Shown here in pieces: positions 1,113 through 62,653 of a stretch of 64,000 bases of DNA. The DNA is from a phage, in the sequence record NC_135730.1; one strand, given 5' to 3'. Numbering within the stretch: position 1 is the first letter of the stretch; the number at the start of each line of letters is the position of its first letter. A program made the translations under genes and the position numbers. The notes beneath the pieces were generated by a model. It saw nothing but the letters and a program-made list of their open reading frames with translations, had not been told where the DNA came from and ran no database searches.

Positions 1113-1538
1113 ATGATCTATGAAATGCCAAAACTGATTCGTGACGATGCCCAAAACGCTCACACCATTATTATGGGCAAACGCATGGATATTATTTGTC
1201 ATAAAGATTTCTGGAAAGGAAGTTACTTCACAGAGTATTTTGGTAAACTGGACAATGGTCTGCTGATCCAGTTCTACACCGATGCGGAAAACAACATTCA
1301 CTGGGAGTTCGAAACTGAAGATATCCATAAACTTTTCACCTTCCTCGGTATTAAGGTTGAGGCCAAGTTTGAAGAAGGTGAGTGCGACGATTGTGGATTC
1401 TATGAGGTAACAGATTTCTATCTTCCAAGTGGTGAGAACCTTTACTATGAAAGCCACTTCGGCAACTCCAATATGCCACAGTGTTGGACTGAGTTTTTTG
1501 AAATTGCGGAAGAGGAGCTGGCATACCGTGATTATTGA
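1113..1538 (+). CDS. hypothetical protein
   Basis: 141-aa track ORF with GGAGAA RBS. Confidence 0.6.
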   Translation: MIYEMPKLIRDDAQNAHTIIMGKRMDIICHKDFWKGSYFTEYFGKLDNGLLIQFYTDAENNIHWEFETEDIHKLFTFLGIKVEAKFEEGECDDCGFYEVTDFYLPSGENLYYESHFGNSNMPQCWTEFFEIAEEELAYRDY

Positions 1539-1986
1539 TACTGTAGGTGGAGATCTAATCTCCATTTTCAAGAAAGGGTCAGGCCACATGATCCACGGTT
1601 GTAACTGCTTTCACACAATGGGTGCAGGTATAGCGAAAGATATTGCCCGTGAGTTCCCTCAAGCACTGGCAGCCGACAAAGAAACTGCTTATGGTAATCT
1701 AGACAAGCTGGGTATGTTTTCTTGTTGGGAGCATTTTGCCAAGAACAGGGTCGTATATGGAATCAACCTGTATACCCAGTTCTACCCAGGGCCCAATGCT
1801 GAATACTTCTCAATCATGAAAGGTTTTGAGCGAGTCAACGAGGTATTCAAAGGTGTGTCATTGCCGTTCTACATTCCTAAAATTGGATGCGGTATTGGCG
1901 GTCTAAAGTGGGAACATGTAGAAGATGTAATTAATCTTGCAACCACAGATATTGATGTGGTTGTAGTAGAGTACAAAAAGTGTTGA
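1528..1986 (+). CDS. macro domain protein (TARG1/OARD1-like ADP-ribose hydrolase fold)
   Basis: GTG at 1528 overlapping upstream stop; motif HGCNCFHTMGAGIA resembles the TARG1/DarG-type macrodomain core; N-terminal GGDL. Confidence 0.6.
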   Translation: MIIDTVGGDLISIFKKGSGHMIHGCNCFHTMGAGIAKDIAREFPQALAADKETAYGNLDKLGMFSCWEHFAKNRVVYGINLYTQFYPGPNAEYFSIMKGFERVNEVFKGVSLPFYIPKIGCGIGGLKWEHVEDVINLATTDIDVVVVEYKKC

Positions 1987-2237
1987 CGACCATCTTCTGA
2001 GGTGATATAGTCTCCACAACAACTAAGAGAGGAGAGCACTGTGGAGACTAGAATCTTAATTCTTGCTGTGGTAGATACAACCGAAGGAGCTATATTCGAA
2101 TCTGCAGGAGGGTATTTCTACCTACCATACGGAAAAAGAACTTCCGAGCCAAGTAAAGATTCAATCCTCAAAGTGTTCCCGTGTGCTTTCTGGCTGGAGA
2201 TTTTGGTATAAGATTGCAGAGGATTTGGGAGAGAATT

Positions 2238-3815: not shown

Positions 3816-4416
3816 TATTTTAAGTTATCAGGTTGCCAGAGATCAGGAGGATTTCTAAAATGGATTTCCTCCTTTTGATATTTTACCTGCCAGGATATTT
3901 TAAAATCCTTAGAAAATCAGAAAATGGATCGAAAACTAAAATGGATTTTTCAGAGTAGGCGCGACAAGCTGAATCACTCATCCTACCGTTTGCACCATAT
4001 TCCAGACCACCATTATAGATTTCCCGCACATGCTTACATCTCGCTACTAGAACTTCCTCCACTTACCCTTGACCTTTTATAGCAATAATCCAACCACTAT
4101 CTTGAAGTTGCGGTGCAGCTTTCCAGGTACTCGATCTGTTTTTCGTTTCAAAGATTGAATTTTCTGAAAATTTTTCTCGATAAATTTCTCAGTACTCGAT
4201 CTGTTTTTCGTTTTCTGAATCGGATTTTCTGGAAATCGCTCCGGCTCTTGGCCTAAAATTTTTGGGGACGAAATCGATTTTTCGTTTTCAGAAATGGATT
4301 TTTAAAATTTCTATACGGGAATATTTTATGGGATACTGTTTTATAGGAAATTGTTACGGAGGGTAATTAGCGTGCTAATTAAATTTATTAAATGCGAGGA
4401 GTTCTCATTTAGAATT

Positions 4417-4435
4417 TTGAATGATAATCATTCTC
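4417..4435. promoter_or_regulatory. Fur-box-like site A
   Basis: ttgAATGATAATCATTcTC matches the 19-bp Fur consensus GATAATGATAATCATTATC at about 15/19. Confidence 0.45.
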
Positions 4436-4449
4436 GTTTGCAGAATAAC

Positions 4450-4495
4450 GGGCAGGCCCGGTGATTGTCTCCCGGCCCCTGTTGCCCCGGCTTGT
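4450..4495 (+). repeat. GC-rich hairpin element, copy 1
   Basis: ggcaggcccggtgattgtctccc core shared with 4590-4629 and, inverted, 13459-13507. Confidence 0.6.
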
Positions 4496-4552
4496 TATTA
4501 TAGTATCACACAGGACAAAGAAAGCAAGGATTTTTTGCATAAATTTTTAAAT

Positions 4553-4571
4553 GATAATGATAACCGTTCTC
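4553..4571. promoter_or_regulatory. Fur-box-like site B
   Basis: GATAATGATAAcCgTTcTC matches the Fur consensus at 16/19. Confidence 0.45.
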
Positions 4572-4589
4572 ATTTTATGCAGCGCCCAT

Positions 4590-4629
4590 CCCCGGTGGTT
4601 GTCTCCCCCGTCACCGGTGCCTGCCGTCC
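4590..4629 (+). repeat. GC-rich hairpin element, copy 2
   Basis: ccggtggttgtctcccccgtcaccggtgcctgcc with internal inverted repeat ccggtg/caccgg. Confidence 0.6.
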
Positions 4630-4889
4630 TTTCGATAGGTATATTGTGCCACCTGGCGGGGCCGCTGTCAACACTTTTCAAAAAATTTTTCTAACCTGAT
4701 GCGCTAACCGCTGCCACCTGGCGGGGCCAGCCTGGAAAATGTAGCTATTAATGACGCTGAGGCTATCACCCTGGTTGAAAAGGCCATGGCGGGAGCGTTG
4801 GAACATAAAGAAGAGTACGAAAAAATGATGGTTAACCTGGCAGGGCGGCGGCAGGTGGATTCTATCATAAAAATAATTTAAAATAGTCG

Positions 4890-4918
4890 TTGACAACAAG
4901 GTTAATCATGGTATTATT
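4890..4918 (+). promoter_or_regulatory. sigma70-type promoter
   Basis: TTGACA, 17-nt spacer, ATTATT. Confidence 0.6.
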
Positions 4919-4967
4919 ACCCTACAAGGTGAACAACACCGCACTAACCAGTAAAGAGGATAAATTT

Positions 4968-5165
4968 ATGAACGCATACGGGATCAAAGTACGTCGCAAC
5001 ACTCGCCAGGTGGTCACCAATCAAGTGATTTGCCGGGTGGATGTAACCATCAACAACGGGCAAGGCCTTTATAAATTTCGTCGCGGTCATAGCTATACCC
5101 TGCAACAGCTTAATCGTTGCGCCCTGACAAAAGGTCAGATCAACCACTGGTTTAATAAAAAATAA
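4968..5165 (+). CDS. hypothetical protein
   Basis: ATG at 4968 after AGAGGATAA RBS; internal to track ORF 4890-5165. Confidence 0.55.
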   Translation: MNAYGIKVRRNTRQVVTNQVICRVDVTINNGQGLYKFRRGHSYTLQQLNRCALTKGQINHWFNKK

Positions 5166-5168
5166 GTA

Positions 5169-5197
5169 TTGACATATAGTCCGACACCAAATACACT
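5169..5197 (+). promoter_or_regulatory. sigma70-type promoter
   Basis: TTGACA, 17 nt, TACACT. Confidence 0.55.
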
Positions 5198-5229
5198 AAA
5201 AGCACAAAAGACACTAAGAGGATAAAATC

Positions 5230-5628
5230 ATGAAAACCACAACCTTTAATTTTGATAATGCCGACTTTTCTTTTTCTGATGTCAAGAACTGCCGCCGTGA
5301 TCGTGGATTTTACAAGGCTTATAATCTAGTGGGCCTGGACGATGACAATAATTTGCACGAAGTAGCTGAGATCCGGTATTATGCCGCCGCCAGCGGGAAC
5401 ACTTACTACTGCGTTTTTTGGATACACGACAACAAGAACAATAAGTACGGCTATACTGGCGGCAAGGCGAGCGGTCACGGTTATGATAAAGCTAACGCAG
5501 CATTTGAGAGCGCATTAAATGCTATGGGGATCACTGCCAACGGCTGGATCTATGAAGAAGAGTTTTTGTCGGCACTTGCTAACCACCTAGGCTATAAAAA
5601 GCACATTGTAACATGTGCCCACGAATAA
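5230..5628 (+). CDS. hypothetical protein
   Basis: 132-aa track ORF; AAGAGGA RBS. Confidence 0.65.
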   Translation: MKTTTFNFDNADFSFSDVKNCRRDRGFYKAYNLVGLDDDNNLHEVAEIRYYAAASGNTYYCVFWIHDNKNNKYGYTGGKASGHGYDKANAAFESALNAMGITANGWIYEEEFLSALANHLGYKKHIVTCAHE

Positions 5629-5638
5629 AAAAAAATTA

Positions 5639-5666
5639 TTGACACGCTGCAAAATTAAAGTAAACT
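5639..5666 (+). promoter_or_regulatory. sigma70-type promoter followed by 5' leader hairpin (5677-5695)
   Basis: TTGACA, 16 nt, TAAACT; leader hairpin ggcgggaatgtttcccgcc then CA-rich leader. Confidence 0.55.
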
Positions 5667-5714
5667 AGACACAAAAGGCGGGAATGTTTCCCGCCAACAC
5701 AAAGGAAAAAGATC

Positions 5715-6110
5715 ATGAATAAGAACGTACGCCGCATCATGAACGAACTGGCAAACGATGAAAAAATTATTGATATGCATTTGGTCAACATTTGCCGCCG
5801 TTGTGTAACATATAACAACCGCGCCGCAAAAGCGCGTGAGATGAACGCAAAAGGCACCTTAAAGCCCTTTCAGGTGGTTGTAAAATCTATAGCTAATGCA
5901 GCAGGCCAGGCGCATGACCACAACAACGAGAGCACTAATATTGATCCGTCTTACGTAATGAAACGGATCCGGACTTGCAAGAATAAAGAGCAGGTGTATA
6001 ACGTCATAGATTGGCTGGACTCCATGGGCGATGGGGTTTATAATAGGTTTTCTGCAGCTATCGAGATCCAGCTTGACAGATTGGACGGGAAAGTACTGAA
6101 AACTTACTGA
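5715..6110 (+). CDS. hypothetical protein
   Basis: 131-aa track ORF. Confidence 0.65.
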   Translation: MNKNVRRIMNELANDEKIIDMHLVNICRRCVTYNNRAAKAREMNAKGTLKPFQVVVKSIANAAGQAHDHNNESTNIDPSYVMKRIRTCKNKEQVYNVIDWLDSMGDGVYNRFSAAIEIQLDRLDGKVLKTY

Positions 6111-13400: not shown

Positions 13401-13416
13401 TATTTATAAACTACAA

Positions 13417-13446
13417 AACAGGGCTTGCAATGGTCCTGTTTTTTGT
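13417..13446 (+). terminator. rho-independent terminator
   Basis: acagg/cctgt stem followed by TTTTTTG. Confidence 0.55.
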
Positions 13447-13458
13447 TATACTTATTCC

Positions 13459-13507
13459 ACGGCAGGCACCTGGCGACGGGGGGAGACAATCACCGGGCCT
13501 GCCTGTC
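13459..13507 (-). repeat. GC-rich hairpin element, copy 3 (inverted)
   Basis: reverse complement reads ggcaggcccggtgattgtctccccccgtcgccaggtgcctgcc. Confidence 0.6.
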
Positions 13508-15084: not shown

Positions 15085-15110
15085 AAGGGGCTTAGGCCCC
15101 TTTCTTTTTG
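15085..15110 (+). terminator. rho-independent terminator ending the + strand early block
   Basis: aagggg-cttag-gcccct followed by TTCTTTTTG. Confidence 0.65.
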
Positions 15111-17500
15111 TCTGCTCTTCCCCCTACCATAAACGGCCCTACCTGGCAAGTGGAATAATTGACGAGCCATCAATCCCACACACTGTACAAATATACATGT
15201 AAAATAGCTATTGCATAACCTTTCATTGTGTGGTAGCAGGGCTATTTTACCCGTTTTCCCTTCCAAAATTGCACGTAATGCCGCTATTGCACAAATTTTA
15301 ACCTGATGCAGATCTTCAATATCTTGTCAACAAATAAAAATTCTTATAAGTCATACACTTACACCAACACAAAAGCGTTTTCTACGTGAAAAATCGAGTA
15401 TAACTATAGCCGCCAGATCTCAGAATTTACGTACGCTCACCATTCTATAGCCTGCTAAGTATTTATTCCAACCATAGAATAATGGAATAGTCAATACCTG
15501 CATAAAATAATTATTCGTTTAAATTGCATAACATAAATCAGCCAGGGTGTCAACATTTTTCGTAAACAGTCCGAAATTATCGCTGTGAATTATCATAAAC
15601 AGAGAAATCTTTAGTCGTCTAATGTTTACTGTACGTTACTATACTGACTGGAATCATTAGATGACTAAGAGAAAGATAAGAAATAATTAACAATACAATT
15701 ATTTTATCTGTAACAATAAGGCAACTATGCAAACGAATGGCATGGCGCGACGGAGTCGCGACATAATATAAAAGCAGTAACCATCACCCCCGTGATAGTT
15801 TGTCTGCAATCTATTAATCAGATCATAGTTGCCTTGTATTTAGTTAATCATGACATAACAAGCAAGGCAACTATAGATCTTCTAATAGTTGCCCTGCTTT
15901 TATATTATGTCATAGAAACACCCGAAGGGGTGACCAAAGGTCACCTGGCATAGCCAGCGAAAGATTATTAACTTGCTAATCGTTATCATGCAAACGAATG
16001 GCATGGCTTATAATTTTTGAGCAAATAGTCTATACGTGAACAGTGAGGCATGCAATAGTAACAATTGTTATTATATCCAGTGTTTAGTATGCCCAGTGTG
16101 TCAAAGGTGTCTAAAGTGTCAGACAAGTTTTTCTCCTCTTTGTCAAGTGCTGCATGAAAAATTTACAATCTGGTATGGTAGCATTTTTGCGGCCCTGTTT
16201 ACATCCAGTTGTGTATGTATAACCCTTGTTGTGTGGGCGTTTAGACGTCTGGACGGTTGGAAGTCTACAGGTCAATATCTAATCTATCGGCTGCTAACTA
16301 TATCCCACACAAATAGTAAGAAATATAATTGTTATATGCGTAAACAGTAACTCATGTTATCAATCCCTGTATGTATCGCCAGTGGTGCGCATAATGGGTA
16401 TTATGTTAAATTGCCCGTAATGATAATGGTTCTCACAATGATATGTATTCTCATTCCCCCACACAAAATAGATTGCAAATGTTGTGCCACTATGTGAACG
16501 GCCTCACCTATTAATTTGCCTCACTGCCTCGATATTTGAGAATTGTTATAAGAATGAGAAGTATTCCCATTTCGTCCGCCTGGCAGCACTCCTGTCGGTC
16601 AGGTCAAAATCGTGGTATAACTGGACCTGTTCAGATATTTCTGGCTGACTCTTCAGGCCTGTGTGGGAAAAGCCGACCCCTCCGGCGGCGGGGAGGGGGT
16701 CAATTAAAAAATTTACGGGGTATATGAAGCGCTCTTCAGGTAAGGCAGGTATTATGGGATGAAACCCTCTTCAGGTAATGATATTTGTGGGTGTGATATT
16801 TGCTGGAAAGCCAGATATGACGGGACTCCCGGCGGGGCAGGGGTAGTACAGACAGGGAAAATATGGAGGATGTGGTTGGGTAAATTGATCAGACAGGTAG
16901 AGTATGGAATATGTTATGAATATGTTAAATATAGAGGTTGAATATCTGTAGGATTTGTGTGTAAAATCAAAGACTTAAGTGGTGTTGTGGTATTTTCTAT
17001 AAATAATTCAAGTTTAATAGGTGATATTTGTCCCTATCTACTTTGTGTGGTAAACAGATTCAGATGAGATTGGTTTACGAGTGTATACATAATATACAAA
17101 TTAAAGATACAAGAAACCCCCCTCCCCCTTCGGCTACCATTCACCTTTTCCTCTGACTGGTACTTAAACACTTATTCAGACTCTTCAGGTTATCACCCAT
17201 ATATCATATGGCAGTGACTGGTGTCCTCCGGCCCCTCTTTCGTCACCCGTCCGCTTCGCCATGCTAATGCCATAGCCAAATGTTCGGTTGTTCACCCTGT
17301 TCACTCAGGTGTATCTCCATACCCCTTCAAACCGAAGAGAACAGAAAACCCGAATTACTCGGTAAAAGAAAAGAGAAGAACTTAATTTTATCAGGATAGG
17401 CAAGAATGTCAAGGCATGACTGCTCACTAAACAAGCAAACAGTCATGTGTGGGAGGTAAGTGATTGTGGTGGTGGGAAATTTAGTTGAAAGATGTGCTAC
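15111..17500. other. 2.4 kb non-coding repeat-rich region at the convergence of the two transcription blocks
   Basis: no credible ORF with RBS; nested inverted repeats 15757-15915, duplicated atgcaaacgaatggcatggc, four ctcttcagg repeats, CCCCTCCCCC motifs. Confidence 0.6.
16672..16705 (-). terminator. candidate minus-strand terminator
   Basis: gacccctcc/ggagggggtc hairpin followed on the minus strand by GGCTTTTCC. Confidence 0.35.
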
Positions 17501-59994: not shown

Positions 59995-60069
59995 GCCCTG
60001 TTAGCTTAGTGGATAAAGCAGCGGCCTTCTAAGCCGTTGACACTGGTTCGAGTCCAGTACGGGGTGCCA
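59995..60069 (+). tRNA. tRNA-Arg (anticodon UCU)
   Basis: manual cloverleaf; anticodon loop CTTCTAA; T-loop GGTTCGAGTCC; CCA present. Confidence 0.7.
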
Positions 60070-60073
60070 AATT

Positions 60074-60160
60074 GGGGAGTTATCCCGTAGAGGTAGCGGT
60101 GTAGACTGTAAATCTATTGTCATTGCGACTCGGGTGGTTCGACTCCACCACTCCCCACCA
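60074..60160 (+). tRNA. tRNA-Tyr (anticodon GUA), type II
   Basis: acceptor GGGGAGT/ACTCCCC; loop CTGTAAA; long variable arm; T-loop TTCGACT. Confidence 0.7.
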
Positions 60161-60274
60161 AATTTATATTTTTAGATGCATAAATAATACAGATAATGGC
60201 ATTGATATTTATCGTCGTTTATACTAGTCACTAACTGCTCGAAAATCAGTGTCATTATCAGTATAATTTATAAA

Positions 60275-60365
60275 GGAGGGTAGGGAGCAATGGTGCTCAA
60301 GCGGTCTTGAAAACCGTCCCGTTGAGGATGACTCGATGATGGTTCGATTCCATTACTCTCCGCCA
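60275..60365 (+). tRNA. tRNA-Ser (anticodon UGA), type II
   Basis: anticodon arm CGGTCTTGAAAACCG matches E. coli tRNA-Ser as recalled; long variable arm. Confidence 0.75.
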
Positions 60366-60463
60366 CATTGTTGACCTTGTAATTAAGCGAAAGCCGGAAG
60401 CAGAACCGGATTATCAAATGTTACAGTCGTCATCGCCGACTAGCAACATGGTCAACATACTGA

Positions 60464-60562
60464 GCTAGGTAAGCCCTTTGGCAAGGGCGAGGATTTTTAA
60501 TCCTGAAAATAGACGAGGTAGTCGTTGAATACATAGGTGGTTCGATTCCATCGCCTAGCACC
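60464..60562 (+). tRNA. atypical type-II-length tRNA-like gene, anticodon ambiguous (UUU or UAA)
   Basis: good acceptor, D and T arms; anticodon stem only 4 bp; about 29-nt variable region. Confidence 0.4.
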
Positions 60563-60567
60563 TTTTT

Positions 60568-60643
60568 GCTGATGTAGCACAATCGGTAGTGCAATTGATT
60601 TGTAATCAATAGGTTGTAGGTTCAAGTCCTGCCATCAGCACCA
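60568..60643 (+). tRNA. tRNA-Thr (anticodon UGU)
   Basis: all four stems pair cleanly; loop TTTGTAA. Confidence 0.8.
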
Positions 60644-60644
60644 A

Positions 60645-60719
60645 GGCCCTGTAGCTGGAAGGTTCAAGCAAGCGACTCATAATCGCCAGACGGTGGTTCA
60701 ATTCCACCCAGGGCCACCA
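60645..60719 (+). tRNA. tRNA with CAU anticodon (Met or lysidine-Ile)
   Basis: acceptor GGCCCTG/CAGGGCC; loop CTCATAA; T-stem GGTGG/CCACC. Confidence 0.7.
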
Positions 60720-60730
60720 AATAGTAAATA

Positions 60731-60807
60731 CTCCGCGTAGCTCAGCTTGGTAGAGCGCCTGATTTGGGATCAGGAGGTCGAGTGTTCGAATCACTCCGTG
60801 GAGACCA
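60731..60807 (+). tRNA. tRNA-Pro (anticodon UGG)
   Basis: C1:G72 first pair typical of bacterial tRNA-Pro; loop TTTGGGA; clean cloverleaf. Confidence 0.8.
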
Positions 60808-61911: not shown

Positions 61912-62336
61912 TGTCTAAGATTTACGGACCGTGTTCTGAAAAGCAGAAGATGATCCTCGAAAACGATGCAGATATTTTGGTAATCGGCGGTGCCGCAGGG
62001 TCTGGCAAGTCGTTCCTCTTGCAGTTGATGCCGCTTAAAATTATTGATGACCCCCACAGCTCTGTGGTTATGTTCCGAAGAACAACCCCACAGTTGGAAG
62101 GTGAGGGTGGGCTATGGCCTAAAGCAGTAGCTATTTATAGTGATCTGCCTGAAAACATTAAGCCAAAGTTCAGAGAGAAGGATCATAAGTTCATTTTCCC
62201 ACGGTTTGATCCGAGCACTGGCAAGTGGGATAGAAGCAAAAAGGGAGCTGTTGTAAAATACTGCCACATGGAGTATGTCCAAGATAAGCTTAACCATCAA
62301 GGTCTTGAGTACACCATGGTTTGCTTCGATGAGGGT
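61911..62336 (+). CDS. terminase large subunit, exon 1 (ATPase domain)
   Basis: Walker A GGAAGSGKS, Walker B MVCFDE; ends at intron 5' splice site. Confidence 0.8.
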
Positions 62337-62653
62337 TAATTTGTAGCTCTCGTAAAACCTCCCTAATTGCGGGGAAATCTTTACTATTAATACCACCAAC
62401 CTGTCATGGTAACATGATAGAGGCTTCGAAGAGAGATCGAAGGTATGGTAACAGTGTGTTAATTTAGATAATCCGCAGCGAAGCATCCGAGAGGATGAAC
62501 GTTCAACGACTAGTCGAAAGACGTAGAATCAAGCGATTCGAAACGGGAGGGTAAGCGGTTGTTGTCGCTTATAAGATATAGTCTGGTCTGCATGGAGACA
62601 TGCAGCTGCCTGAAAAATGGCGGGGCAAGACTAGCGACCTTGCCCGAACATAG
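62337..62653 (+). mobile_element. ORF-less group I intron in terminase large subunit gene (3' boundary +/- 3 nt)
   Basis: all four core elements in order: P AAUUGCGGGGAAA (about 62364), Q AAUCCGCAGC (about 62470), R GUUCAACGACUAG (about 62501), S AAGAUAUAGUCU (about 62573). Confidence 0.75.

Follow-up and report, generated by a model that had tools for sequence, protein, structure and literature searches.

Fur-box-quality operator arrays beside a predicted GC-rich RNA element in a conserved non-coding module of rV5-like phages

The temperate-phage cargo gene stx1 has a Fur box in front of it. Fur boxes on temperate phages also precede cargo genes such as the sit operon, sitABCD (PMC6969025), and where Fur sites are clustered, offsets of 6 bp (or 3 bp) are typical (Chen et al. 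2007, PMC2189734). In the group of rV5-like phages, the closest precedent for a non-coding RNA locus is pseudo-ToxI of phage PhiTE, an intergenic and expressed locus with a demonstrated anti-ToxIN role (PMC3475682). In the literature, we found no report of Fur boxes in the regulatory DNA of lytic or rV5-like phages, and no relevant transcriptome of this group. Here, we analyzed a stretch of 64,000 nucleotides (sequence record NC_135730.1; the window) from a Vequintavirus, an rV5-like lytic coliphage. No credible gene is found in some 900 bp (4060-4960) that border the early-gene array on its upstream side. The right half of this gap, 4380-4880, carries two Fur-like operator arrays, each next to a copy of a GC-rich element that is probably an RNA.

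A first-pass annotation, made from the letters of the sequence, had described Fur-box matches, a repeated GC-rich hairpin, a 17-bp repeat and an open frame at this locus, and all of these features are present. Its two Fur-box matches were borne out. The site at 4417-4435, TTGAATGATAATCATTCTC, agrees with the Fur consensus GATAATGATAATCATTATC at 15 of 19 positions and the site at 4553-4571, GATAATGATAACCGTTCTC, at 16 of 19. The latter is the sole site in the 64 kb with three or fewer mismatches to the consensus, where 0.01 would be expected. Under the same scoring, E. coli operators (fepA-fes, fepD-entS, fepB-entC, fhuA and iucA) reached 13-17 of 19, and the phage sites lie in the upper half of that range. 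For this comparison, the fhuA promoter and three enterobactin intergenic regions were read from E. coli K-12; the aerobactin operator sequence, which lies directly upstream of iucA, is carried by 797 plasmids with 100% identity. A matrix built from six E. coli operators and zero phage sites ranked the 19-mer at 4553 first (16.4 bits) and that at 4417 second (15.0 bits) among all 19-mers of the window, with 13.5 bits for the 6-bp-shifted partner at 4423; the matrix is small, each operator in it was picked as the best consensus match of its promoter region, and the scores serve as an uncalibrated indicator. In their agreement with GATAATGATAATCATTATC or with TGATAATNATTATCA, the 7-1-7 core, both phage sites equal proven operators, and both consist of overlapping sites with a 6-bp offset (4417/4423 and 4552/4558). 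Across the window there are 17 sites with the 7-1-7 core, compared with 6.1 +/- 2.5 expected, and they form two clusters, at 4422-4572 and 15974-16571.

The likeness extends to shared words. Site 1 contains 16 contiguous bases, ATAATCATTCTCGTTT, identical to the Fur site of the E. coli K-12 fhuA promoter, which was bound by Fur in a gel shift (Chen et al. 2007, PMC2189734). The 13-mer AATGAGAATCATT of related phages matches the aerobactin operator that precedes iucA base for base, and the Mydovirus form, AATGAGAAGCATT, has 13 bases identical to a fepB-entC site. We also considered the palindrome as an RNA hairpin and rejected this candidate. A common asymmetric position, with T in one half and C in the other, is a mismatch in either RNA sense, and because it breaks pairing in both, the palindromes behave as protein-binding DNA sites. 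Taken at the level of sequence, these results strongly support a Fur-box quality of both sites, and binding by Fur is predicted.

The gap belongs to a module that keeps its place and layout across the Vequintavirinae and Stephanstirmvirinae. By megablast, 122 phage records, all of them rV5-like Vequintavirus and Gotham and EdH4 among them, were 90-99% identical to 4000-6000. By sensitive blastn, 4379-4536 was 72-88% identical to unannotated DNA of other genera and of the second subfamily. In an alignment of 16 loci, taken from Vequintavirus, Seunavirus, Mydovirus, Certrevirus, Henunavirus, Kashira, Phapecoctavirus and Justusliebigvirus, the position and order of the module were preserved throughout (at least eight phage genera). 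The phages concerned infect Escherichia, Salmonella, Klebsiella, Cronobacter, Pectobacterium, Erwinia, Serratia and Pantoea. The order shared by these loci has first three direct repeats of about 65 bp with GATC sites and A/T tracts, followed by one to five palindromes with the consensus AATGAGAATCATTCTCATT. Next comes GCAGAAT(A/G)(A/G)C(G/A)(G/C)GCA, a variable pentamer and GGTG(A/T)TTGTCTC, with zero indels in any locus, and then a GC-rich stretch. In the window, each of the three repeats (4120-4310, the left part of the module) holds A/T tracts and GTACTCGATC, which includes a GATC site. Counterparts of this triple repeat (GGTTCTCGATCG..TTTTC..AAAAAATTTTT) occupy the same position in PVP-SE1, Ro1, Kashira, KaOmega, POP15, Hena1 and LNA4. 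The two blocks of Fur site and hairpin in the window form a tandem duplication whose period is 130-136 bp (repeat families D3, D8 and D13), in which the order of promoter, element and operator is kept and array 2 is the direct-repeat paralogue of array 1. A coding reading of the module, suggested by automatic open reading frames in Gotham, EdH4 and F5M2A, was rejected: indels whose lengths are not multiples of three, and frames that change between strains, speak against it.

The same data bear on whether the sites are chance matches or captured host DNA, the latter having been one of the options of the first-pass annotation. The surroundings of the sites are AT-rich, and the 16-base identity with the fhuA promoter could suggest capture. 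However, the expectation was 0.01 for the 16/19 site and 0.08 for the triplet of element cores described below, and 4380-4900 had no blastn match in 5,426 complete E. coli genomes or in 20,395 E. coli records. Instead, the module recurs in phages, where at least eight genera, with hosts in eight enterobacterial genera, have kept it. An origin by chance or from the host is refuted by these three lines of evidence and is extremely improbable.

The element beside the arrays is defined by its core, CCGGTGRTTGTCTCC(C), which occurs exactly three times in the window, at 4458-4474 (+), 4592-4608 (+) and 13480-13496 (-), with 0.08 expected. The earlier observations that the third copy is inverted and that the copies bracket the early array were both correct, and the arrangement is kept in other genera. 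The invariant apical part is GGAGACAAYCACCGG. The fold z-scores were -0.8, -2.3 and -2.6 for copies 1, 2 and 3, that of copy 2 in the sense that agrees with its promoter; fold stability is uneven, and the element is therefore defined by its conserved core and not by raw stem strength. The basal stem covaries among the orthologues of copy 1 (AUAGCG/CGCUAU, AUGGCG/CGUCAU and AUGGCA/UGUCAU), with compensatory changes from A-U to G-C and from G-C to A-U. The inner stem is not conserved between genera.

We lined up 26 core instances in the sense GGAGACAAWCACC, and each of the 26 was preceded, in that sense and at a distance of 25-36 nt, by a sigma-70-like -35/-10 pair. In the promoter sense, the six-pair basal stem had 58 Watson-Crick pairs, 14 G-U pairs and 6 mismatches; in the opposite sense, the figures were 58, 6 and 14. 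The G-U bias thus favors the minus sense by 14 to 6. Because of the promoters and the G-U bias, the element RNA is placed on the strand opposite to the one read in the first-pass annotation; most likely, copies 1 and 2 give rise to a minus-strand RNA and copy 3 to a plus-strand RNA. The idea of a Fur-regulated small RNA, one of three readings offered in that annotation, is favored by this evidence, apart from its strand and apart from the position of the Fur sites, which lie downstream of the element promoters and not over them. With its own promoter, a covarying structure and a G-U strand bias, the element has the properties of a structured small RNA or leader, as a new motif. A search against Rfam 15 returned nothing relevant in 3900-5100 at E <= 10, nor in six related loci at E <= 1, a search at the gathering threshold was equally without a relevant match, and we found no publication that contains the core sequence. 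There is no T-run after any of the three window copies on either strand, and for this reason the copies are not intrinsic terminators.

The promoters of the three copies are given in Table 1. That of copy 1, a weak one, has an inferred start at about 4493 and falls under the scanner threshold in the window, and homologous promoters were called in relatives (L011, TTGCCA-17-TATATT; L004, TTGATC-16-TATTAT). The promoter of copy 2 has an inferred start at about 4636, immediately upstream of the element, with positional homologues in L011 (TTGACG-17-CATAAT), L004 (TTGCAA-17-TATAGT) and L008 (TTGACA-17-TATACT). The copy 3 promoter sits inside the terminator hairpin of the preceding gene (13415-13442), upstream of the element. 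As for the Fur sites, array 1 overlaps the weak rightward sequence TTGAAT-18-CAGAAT, whose -10 is unconserved, and array 2 overlaps no promoter. It is doubtful that this rightward sequence (4417-4446) is a real promoter.

Table 1. Coordinates of the features described in the window
Feature	Position	Strand	Basis and remarks
Three direct repeats	4120-4171, 4185-4236, 4259-4310	.	Repeat family D1; start-to-start spacing 65-74 bp
Fur-like operator array 1	4417-4441	.	19-mers 4417-4435 and 4423-4441 (6-bp shift); 7-1-7 core TGATAATCATTCTCG at 4422-4436
Rightward promoter-like sequence	4417-4446	+	TTGAAT-18-CAGAAT; read from sequence, not called by promoter scan; array 1 would cover it
GC-rich RNA element, copy 1 (predicted)	4444-4499	-	Minus-strand core GGAGACAATCACC = plus strand 4460-4472
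Weak leftward sigma-70-like promoter, copy 1	4527-4500	-	TTGCTT (4527-4522), 16-nt spacer, TACTAT (4505-4500)
Fur-like operator array 2	4552-4572	.	19-mer 4553-4571; 7-1-7 cores 4552-4566 and 4558-4572, 6 bp apart
GC-rich RNA element, copy 2 (predicted)	4579-4626	-	Minus-strand core GGAGACAACCACC = plus strand 4594-4606
Leftward sigma-70 promoter, copy 2	4671-4643	-	TTGACA-17-CACAAT, TG before -10; scan 10/12 matches
5'-truncated remnant of small early gene	4726-4881	+	Alignment with Gotham, EdH4 and L007; PHROG match phrog_21957
Rightward promoter, copy 3	13425-13452	+	TTGCAA-16-TATACT, TG before -10; predicted to drive copy 3
GC-rich RNA element, copy 3 (predicted)	13459-13507	+	Core GGGGAGACAATCACCGG at 13480-13496; inverted relative to copies 1 and 2
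Second Fur-like palindrome cluster	16416-16571	.	AATGATAATGGTTCTCACA at 16419, AATGATATGTATTCTCATT at 16437, AATGAGAAGTATTCCCATT at 16553

We propose, tentatively but as a quite possible reading, that Fur-type operators control transcription through the small-RNA units. Read on the minus strand, each unit would consist of a sigma-70 promoter, a GC-rich leader or small RNA of about 50 nt and a Fur-type operator array. Fe2+-loaded host Fur would bind the operators, which start about 45-65 bp downstream of the leftward starts, and in unit 1 the operators would also cover the weak rightward promoter-like sequence. When iron is plentiful, transcription through the module would be blocked or truncated, and when iron is scarce it would be released; the output would be a changed amount or length of the small RNA. 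In this proposal, it is the binding of Fur downstream of the leftward starts that would make transcription of the module iron-gated. Operator quality, promoters, conservation, covariation and strand bias were read from the sequence, and from them we infer the unproven steps, namely Fur binding, the existence of the transcripts, their iron dependence and a target of the RNA. Iron-responsive control of the early genes, as suggested in the first-pass annotation, was not supported in that form. From 4890 onward, every early gene is preceded by a strong sigma-70 promoter of its own, and no site within the array (4.9-13.4 kb) exceeds about 10.5 bits.

Several observations weigh against the proposed control of small-RNA units by Fur. 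The operators would lie at about +45 to +85, which is unusual for Fur repression. Leftward transcription from units 1 and 2 would express no gene, no target of these RNAs was identified, and the window contains no further complement of the element core. The fold of copy 1 is no better than that of shuffled sequence (z = -0.8), and on neither strand was a terminator called within 4444-4499, 4579-4626 or 13459-13507. The -10 of the rightward sequence varies among relatives (CTGAAT in Mydovirus, CGGAAT in L070 and GAGAAT in anhysbys). In addition, the palindrome of most other genera, TGAGAAT-C-ATTCTCA, departs symmetrically from the Fur core TGATAAT-N-ATTATCA, and Phapecoctavirus and Justusliebigvirus have three to five palindromes, with a spacing of 23-29 bp in phage SD2, like phage repressor arrays.

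The last two observations also favor a different binder. The palindromes could be operators of a phage-encoded dimeric DNA-binding protein, with an incidental likeness to Fur and a role in an iron-independent switch, e.g. early shut-off. The consensus of most genera is a perfect palindrome, and the multi-site arrays, spaced at 23-29 bp in phage SD2, are reminiscent of the lambda-type operator arrays. Furthermore, in Phapecoctavirus, Justusliebigvirus and Kashira, the one gene next to the module that runs in reverse encodes an 88-aa protein (phrog_19316), in which the segment GGTVHQVASATGLKVETV looks helix-turn-helix-like. The reverse-strand genes adjacent to the module are found at 1817-2083 (-) in L008, 3294-3476 (-) in L004 and 1527-1718 (-) in L019, and encode either the 88-aa phrog_19316 protein or a 60-aa DUF7170 protein. 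However, both proteins are absent from the Certrevirus and Vequintavirus loci that keep the palindromes, the window has no homologue of either, and neither has a DNA-binding Pfam match. These small proteins were rejected as universal binders of the palindrome, and the phage-repressor explanation is weakened because the neighboring candidates are missing from the window and from Certrevirus. The variation at the deviant position (T/G in one half, A/C in the other) is the same as in authentic Fur operators, as evidenced by iucA (TGAGAAT), fepB-entC (TGAGAAG) and fhuA (ATTCTCG), and the window sites shift toward the Fur consensus, with GATAATGATAAC gaining an extra GATAAT hexamer. We consider a phage repressor unlikely, while giving it real weight.

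A second cluster of Fur-like palindromes is located at the terminal-repeat junction, partly within it and partly at its edge, and the window has no further cluster. The published terminal repeat of Gotham is 459 bp (PMC7471380); it is annotated at both ends of the record and maps to about 16122-16580 of the window. Klebsiella phage KPP-1 has a mapped repeat of 514 bp (PMC9862379), and a similar palindrome cluster is found at and just past one edge of it. No RNA core is found near the terminal-repeat palindromes, and the RNA-control model leaves them unexplained. The window spans a concatemer junction (16122-16597) within a 2.4-kb gene-free region (15100-17500). The GC skew switches sign at this junction, and the flanking transcription on both sides is directed toward it. 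We rejected a genome terminus or pac site at the module itself, since the Gotham repeat maps about 11.7 kb away from it; the separation in KPP-1 is similar.

The presence of the same palindromes at the terminal-repeat edge in the window phage, Gotham and KPP-1 bears on two further explanations. First, the module might be a cis-acting element for replication or packaging, in which the repeats of about 65 bp would be iterons and the palindromes would serve, here and at the genome ends, as architectural or initiator sites. A G-rich transcript from the leftward promoters would then activate or prime replication, in the manner of T4 or ColE1-type origins. The conservation of some 900 gene-free bp across two subfamilies fits this explanation, as do the GATC sites and A6T6-like tracts of the triple repeats, the leftward promoters without a gene to express and the G-rich minus-strand RNA. 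By contrast, no DnaA boxes were found, there is no adjacent initiator gene, and the GC-skew turn is at the terminal-repeat junction (16-17 kb) and not at 4.4 kb. The RNA element is also found by itself at 13459-13507, and four times in an unrelated 46.8-kb metagenomic phage contig, and the strand-biased covariation of its stem speaks for a role as RNA. In our estimate, a replication or packaging element is rather improbable.

Second, Fur might be bound for the sake of titration. Multicopy Fur boxes de-repress the Fur regulon, which is the principle of the Fur titration assay. The several sites of the module and of both terminal repeats, multiplied by replication, would then soak up Fur and de-repress host iron uptake. 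The sites score like authentic operators, one of the two clusters is in the terminal repeat and would be present twice per virion genome, and several sites lie over no convincing promoter. However, titration is pure inference with uncertain copy numbers, and it leaves unexplained both the fixed spacing from palindrome to core, without an indel in any orthologue, and the co-duplication of promoter, element and operator. We regard it as very unlikely.

The RNA element and the palindromes also occur apart from each other. Copy 3 stands at the far edge of the early array without operators, and this unit is conserved across genera: its orthologues lie 9-12 kb from the module, inverted, in Phapecoctavirus and Certrevirus, and further matches occur in Salmonella and Cronobacter phages. 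The combination of terminator and promoter at the far copy is kept in phiWec181, anhysbys and KaOmega, and in KaOmega a Fur-like palindrome follows there too. A scan of IMG/VR with the 15-base core alone gave mostly chance matches, and adding the -10 hexamer made it specific. The core with TATAAT was found only in Vequintavirus-like contigs and in one unrelated contig of 46.8 kb (3300027123_000194; L026 and L027). That contig has four core copies, GGAGACAA(T/A)CACCGG, each 22-23 nt past a TATAAT and followed by a U-run. One of them resembles a mini-gene standing on its own, in which a promoter is followed by about 45 nt, a U-run and then a terminator. There is no palindrome near any of the four copies and no repeats near the mini-gene copy. 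The contig had no match to isolated phage genomes, and six of its open reading frames had no PHROG match. Palindrome and RNA element are independent modules that co-occur here, because each is also found without the other.

Some variable features of the element are recorded here. Five bases between GGCA and GGTG (window 4452-4459) are hypervariable (GGCCC, CCCCC, GGTCC, GGTTC, GCTCC, GGGGC, GGGGT and CCCCT); the variants recur across genera, and near-identical genomes differ there alone. No compensating change for this pentamer was found. Concerted evolution of the pentamer between copies 1 and 3 was considered; it is true in the window and KaOmega, fails in Phapecoctavirus, and was dropped. 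Downstream of the RNA element, CTTTACA(N5)CTTTACAAA or a lone CTTTACA recurs on the plus strand (window 4510-4530; L011 1625-1650), and the CTTTACA motif is also near the far copy in Phapecoctavirus (L146/L147, about 560-580).

To the right of the element, genera other than Vequintavirus carry an additional conserved region, about 200 nt long, CTACCGGCGATCCACCTTCC...GTTAGCCCCGCCTTTTCGCCGTGGGGTGGCG (L011 1640-1760, L004 3130-3240 and L008 1690-1770). It shows compensatory changes in one stem (ACCAGG/CCUGGU, GCCG/CGGC and CCC/GGG) and in another (CCCC/GGGG and CCAA/UUGG), and a pseudoknot, CGGCG/CGCCG crossing CCCC/GGGG, is possible. The region has no Rfam match. It is missing from the window, where the duplicated second unit stands instead.

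To the right of the second unit, the 17-bp direct repeat of the first-pass annotation, TGCCACCTGGCGGGGCC, is exact in both copies, which lie at 4647-4663 and 4712-4728 and not at 4640 and 4715. The first copy falls in the spacer of the copy 2 promoter, and the second abuts a deletion junction. In relatives, the copies match at only 15-16 of 17 positions. The open frame ending in ...IIKII* (stop at 4879-4881) had been noted as lacking a canonical start. It has an intact 57-aa version in Gotham (F10B_0201) and EdH4, which belongs to phrog_21957. Compared with Gotham, EdH4 and an IMG/VR relative, about 85-120 bp have been lost in the window. The frame has no start codon because this deletion removed the ribosome-binding site and the ATG, and the C-terminal frame of the remnant differs between strains. 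By sequence comparison, the open frame is a decaying remnant of a phage gene and not a host fragment. The neighboring genes in annotated relatives are small hypothetical early genes, all on the plus strand and each with a predicted sigma-70 promoter.

Two further observations were made. About 16-18 GenBank records labeled "Campylobacter phage" (C15, A12a, C5 and others) are 94-100% identical to the window over the queried regions, and their host labels look unreliable. A group I catalytic intron is found at 62327-62605 (+) (Rfam match of 84 bits, E = 6e-20), just downstream of a cluster of five tRNA genes (59995-60804).

Regardless of Fur, the analysis defines a conserved regulatory module of 900 bp and a new RNA motif, which has its own promoters, inverted copies flanking the early region across two subfamilies, and no Rfam family or publication that we could find. 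If Fur binds, a group of coliphages in wide use for therapy and biocontrol (relatives of rV5, phi92, PVP-SE1 and CR3) would respond to the iron physiology of the host or manipulate it. Because iron is limiting in the gut and in infected tissue, a link to Fur would bear on phage performance there. In its broadest and more doubtful form, the idea would be that the Vequintavirinae and Stephanstirmvirinae have wired host Fur into their genomes, with operators that guard a small RNA (GGAGACAAYCACCGG) and mark the terminal repeats, that infection is tuned to iron or Fur is titrated, and that the metagenomic copies represent a new class of phage RNA.

The locus can be compared with several described systems. 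Pseudo-ToxI of PhiTE differs from it in its 36-nt ToxI-like repeats, in its location at another locus and in having nothing that links it to Fur. The phage units resemble Fur-repressed small RNAs of the RyhB type in that a small, structured non-coding transcript, here a predicted one, lies beside high-quality Fur boxes, and by this analogy an iron-dependent RNA output is plausible. In contrast to the RyhB type, the phage element has no sequence or Rfam similarity to it, no terminator or U-tail in the window copies, a Fur box that is not over the RNA promoter, and no identified target. IS10 RNA-IN/RNA-OUT, P22 Pant/Psar and ColE1 RNA I/RNA II share with the phage units a short GC-rich stem-loop between facing promoters, here a leftward promoter and a rightward promoter-like sequence about 55 bp apart, and if both fire, the transcripts would be fully complementary. 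Unlike in these antisense pairs, the putative rightward phage promoter is weak and unconserved, and no protein-coding target overlaps the element. Like the lambda nut and HK022 put sites, the element is found several times in one genome, always directly behind a promoter, with opposite orientations at the two edges of an early region and with a conserved sequence in a stem-loop. The phage element has no similarity to boxA/boxB or to put, and units 1 and 2 face away from genes; the analogy is functional only.

Finally, the E. coli Fur operators (fhuA, iucA P1 and fepB-entC) can be set beside the phage sites. They differ in three respects: the phage sites, whose likeness is one of sequence, are in a strictly lytic phage and not upstream of an iron gene, they lie downstream of the best promoters and not across the -35/-10, and the sites of relatives prefer G/C at one symmetric position where Fur prefers T/A. 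They have in common the architecture of a 19-bp and 7-1-7 palindrome with overlaps shifted by 6 bp, consensus scores that are equal or better in the phage, and shared words of 16 bases with fhuA and, in the relatives, of 13 bases with iucA and fepB-entC.

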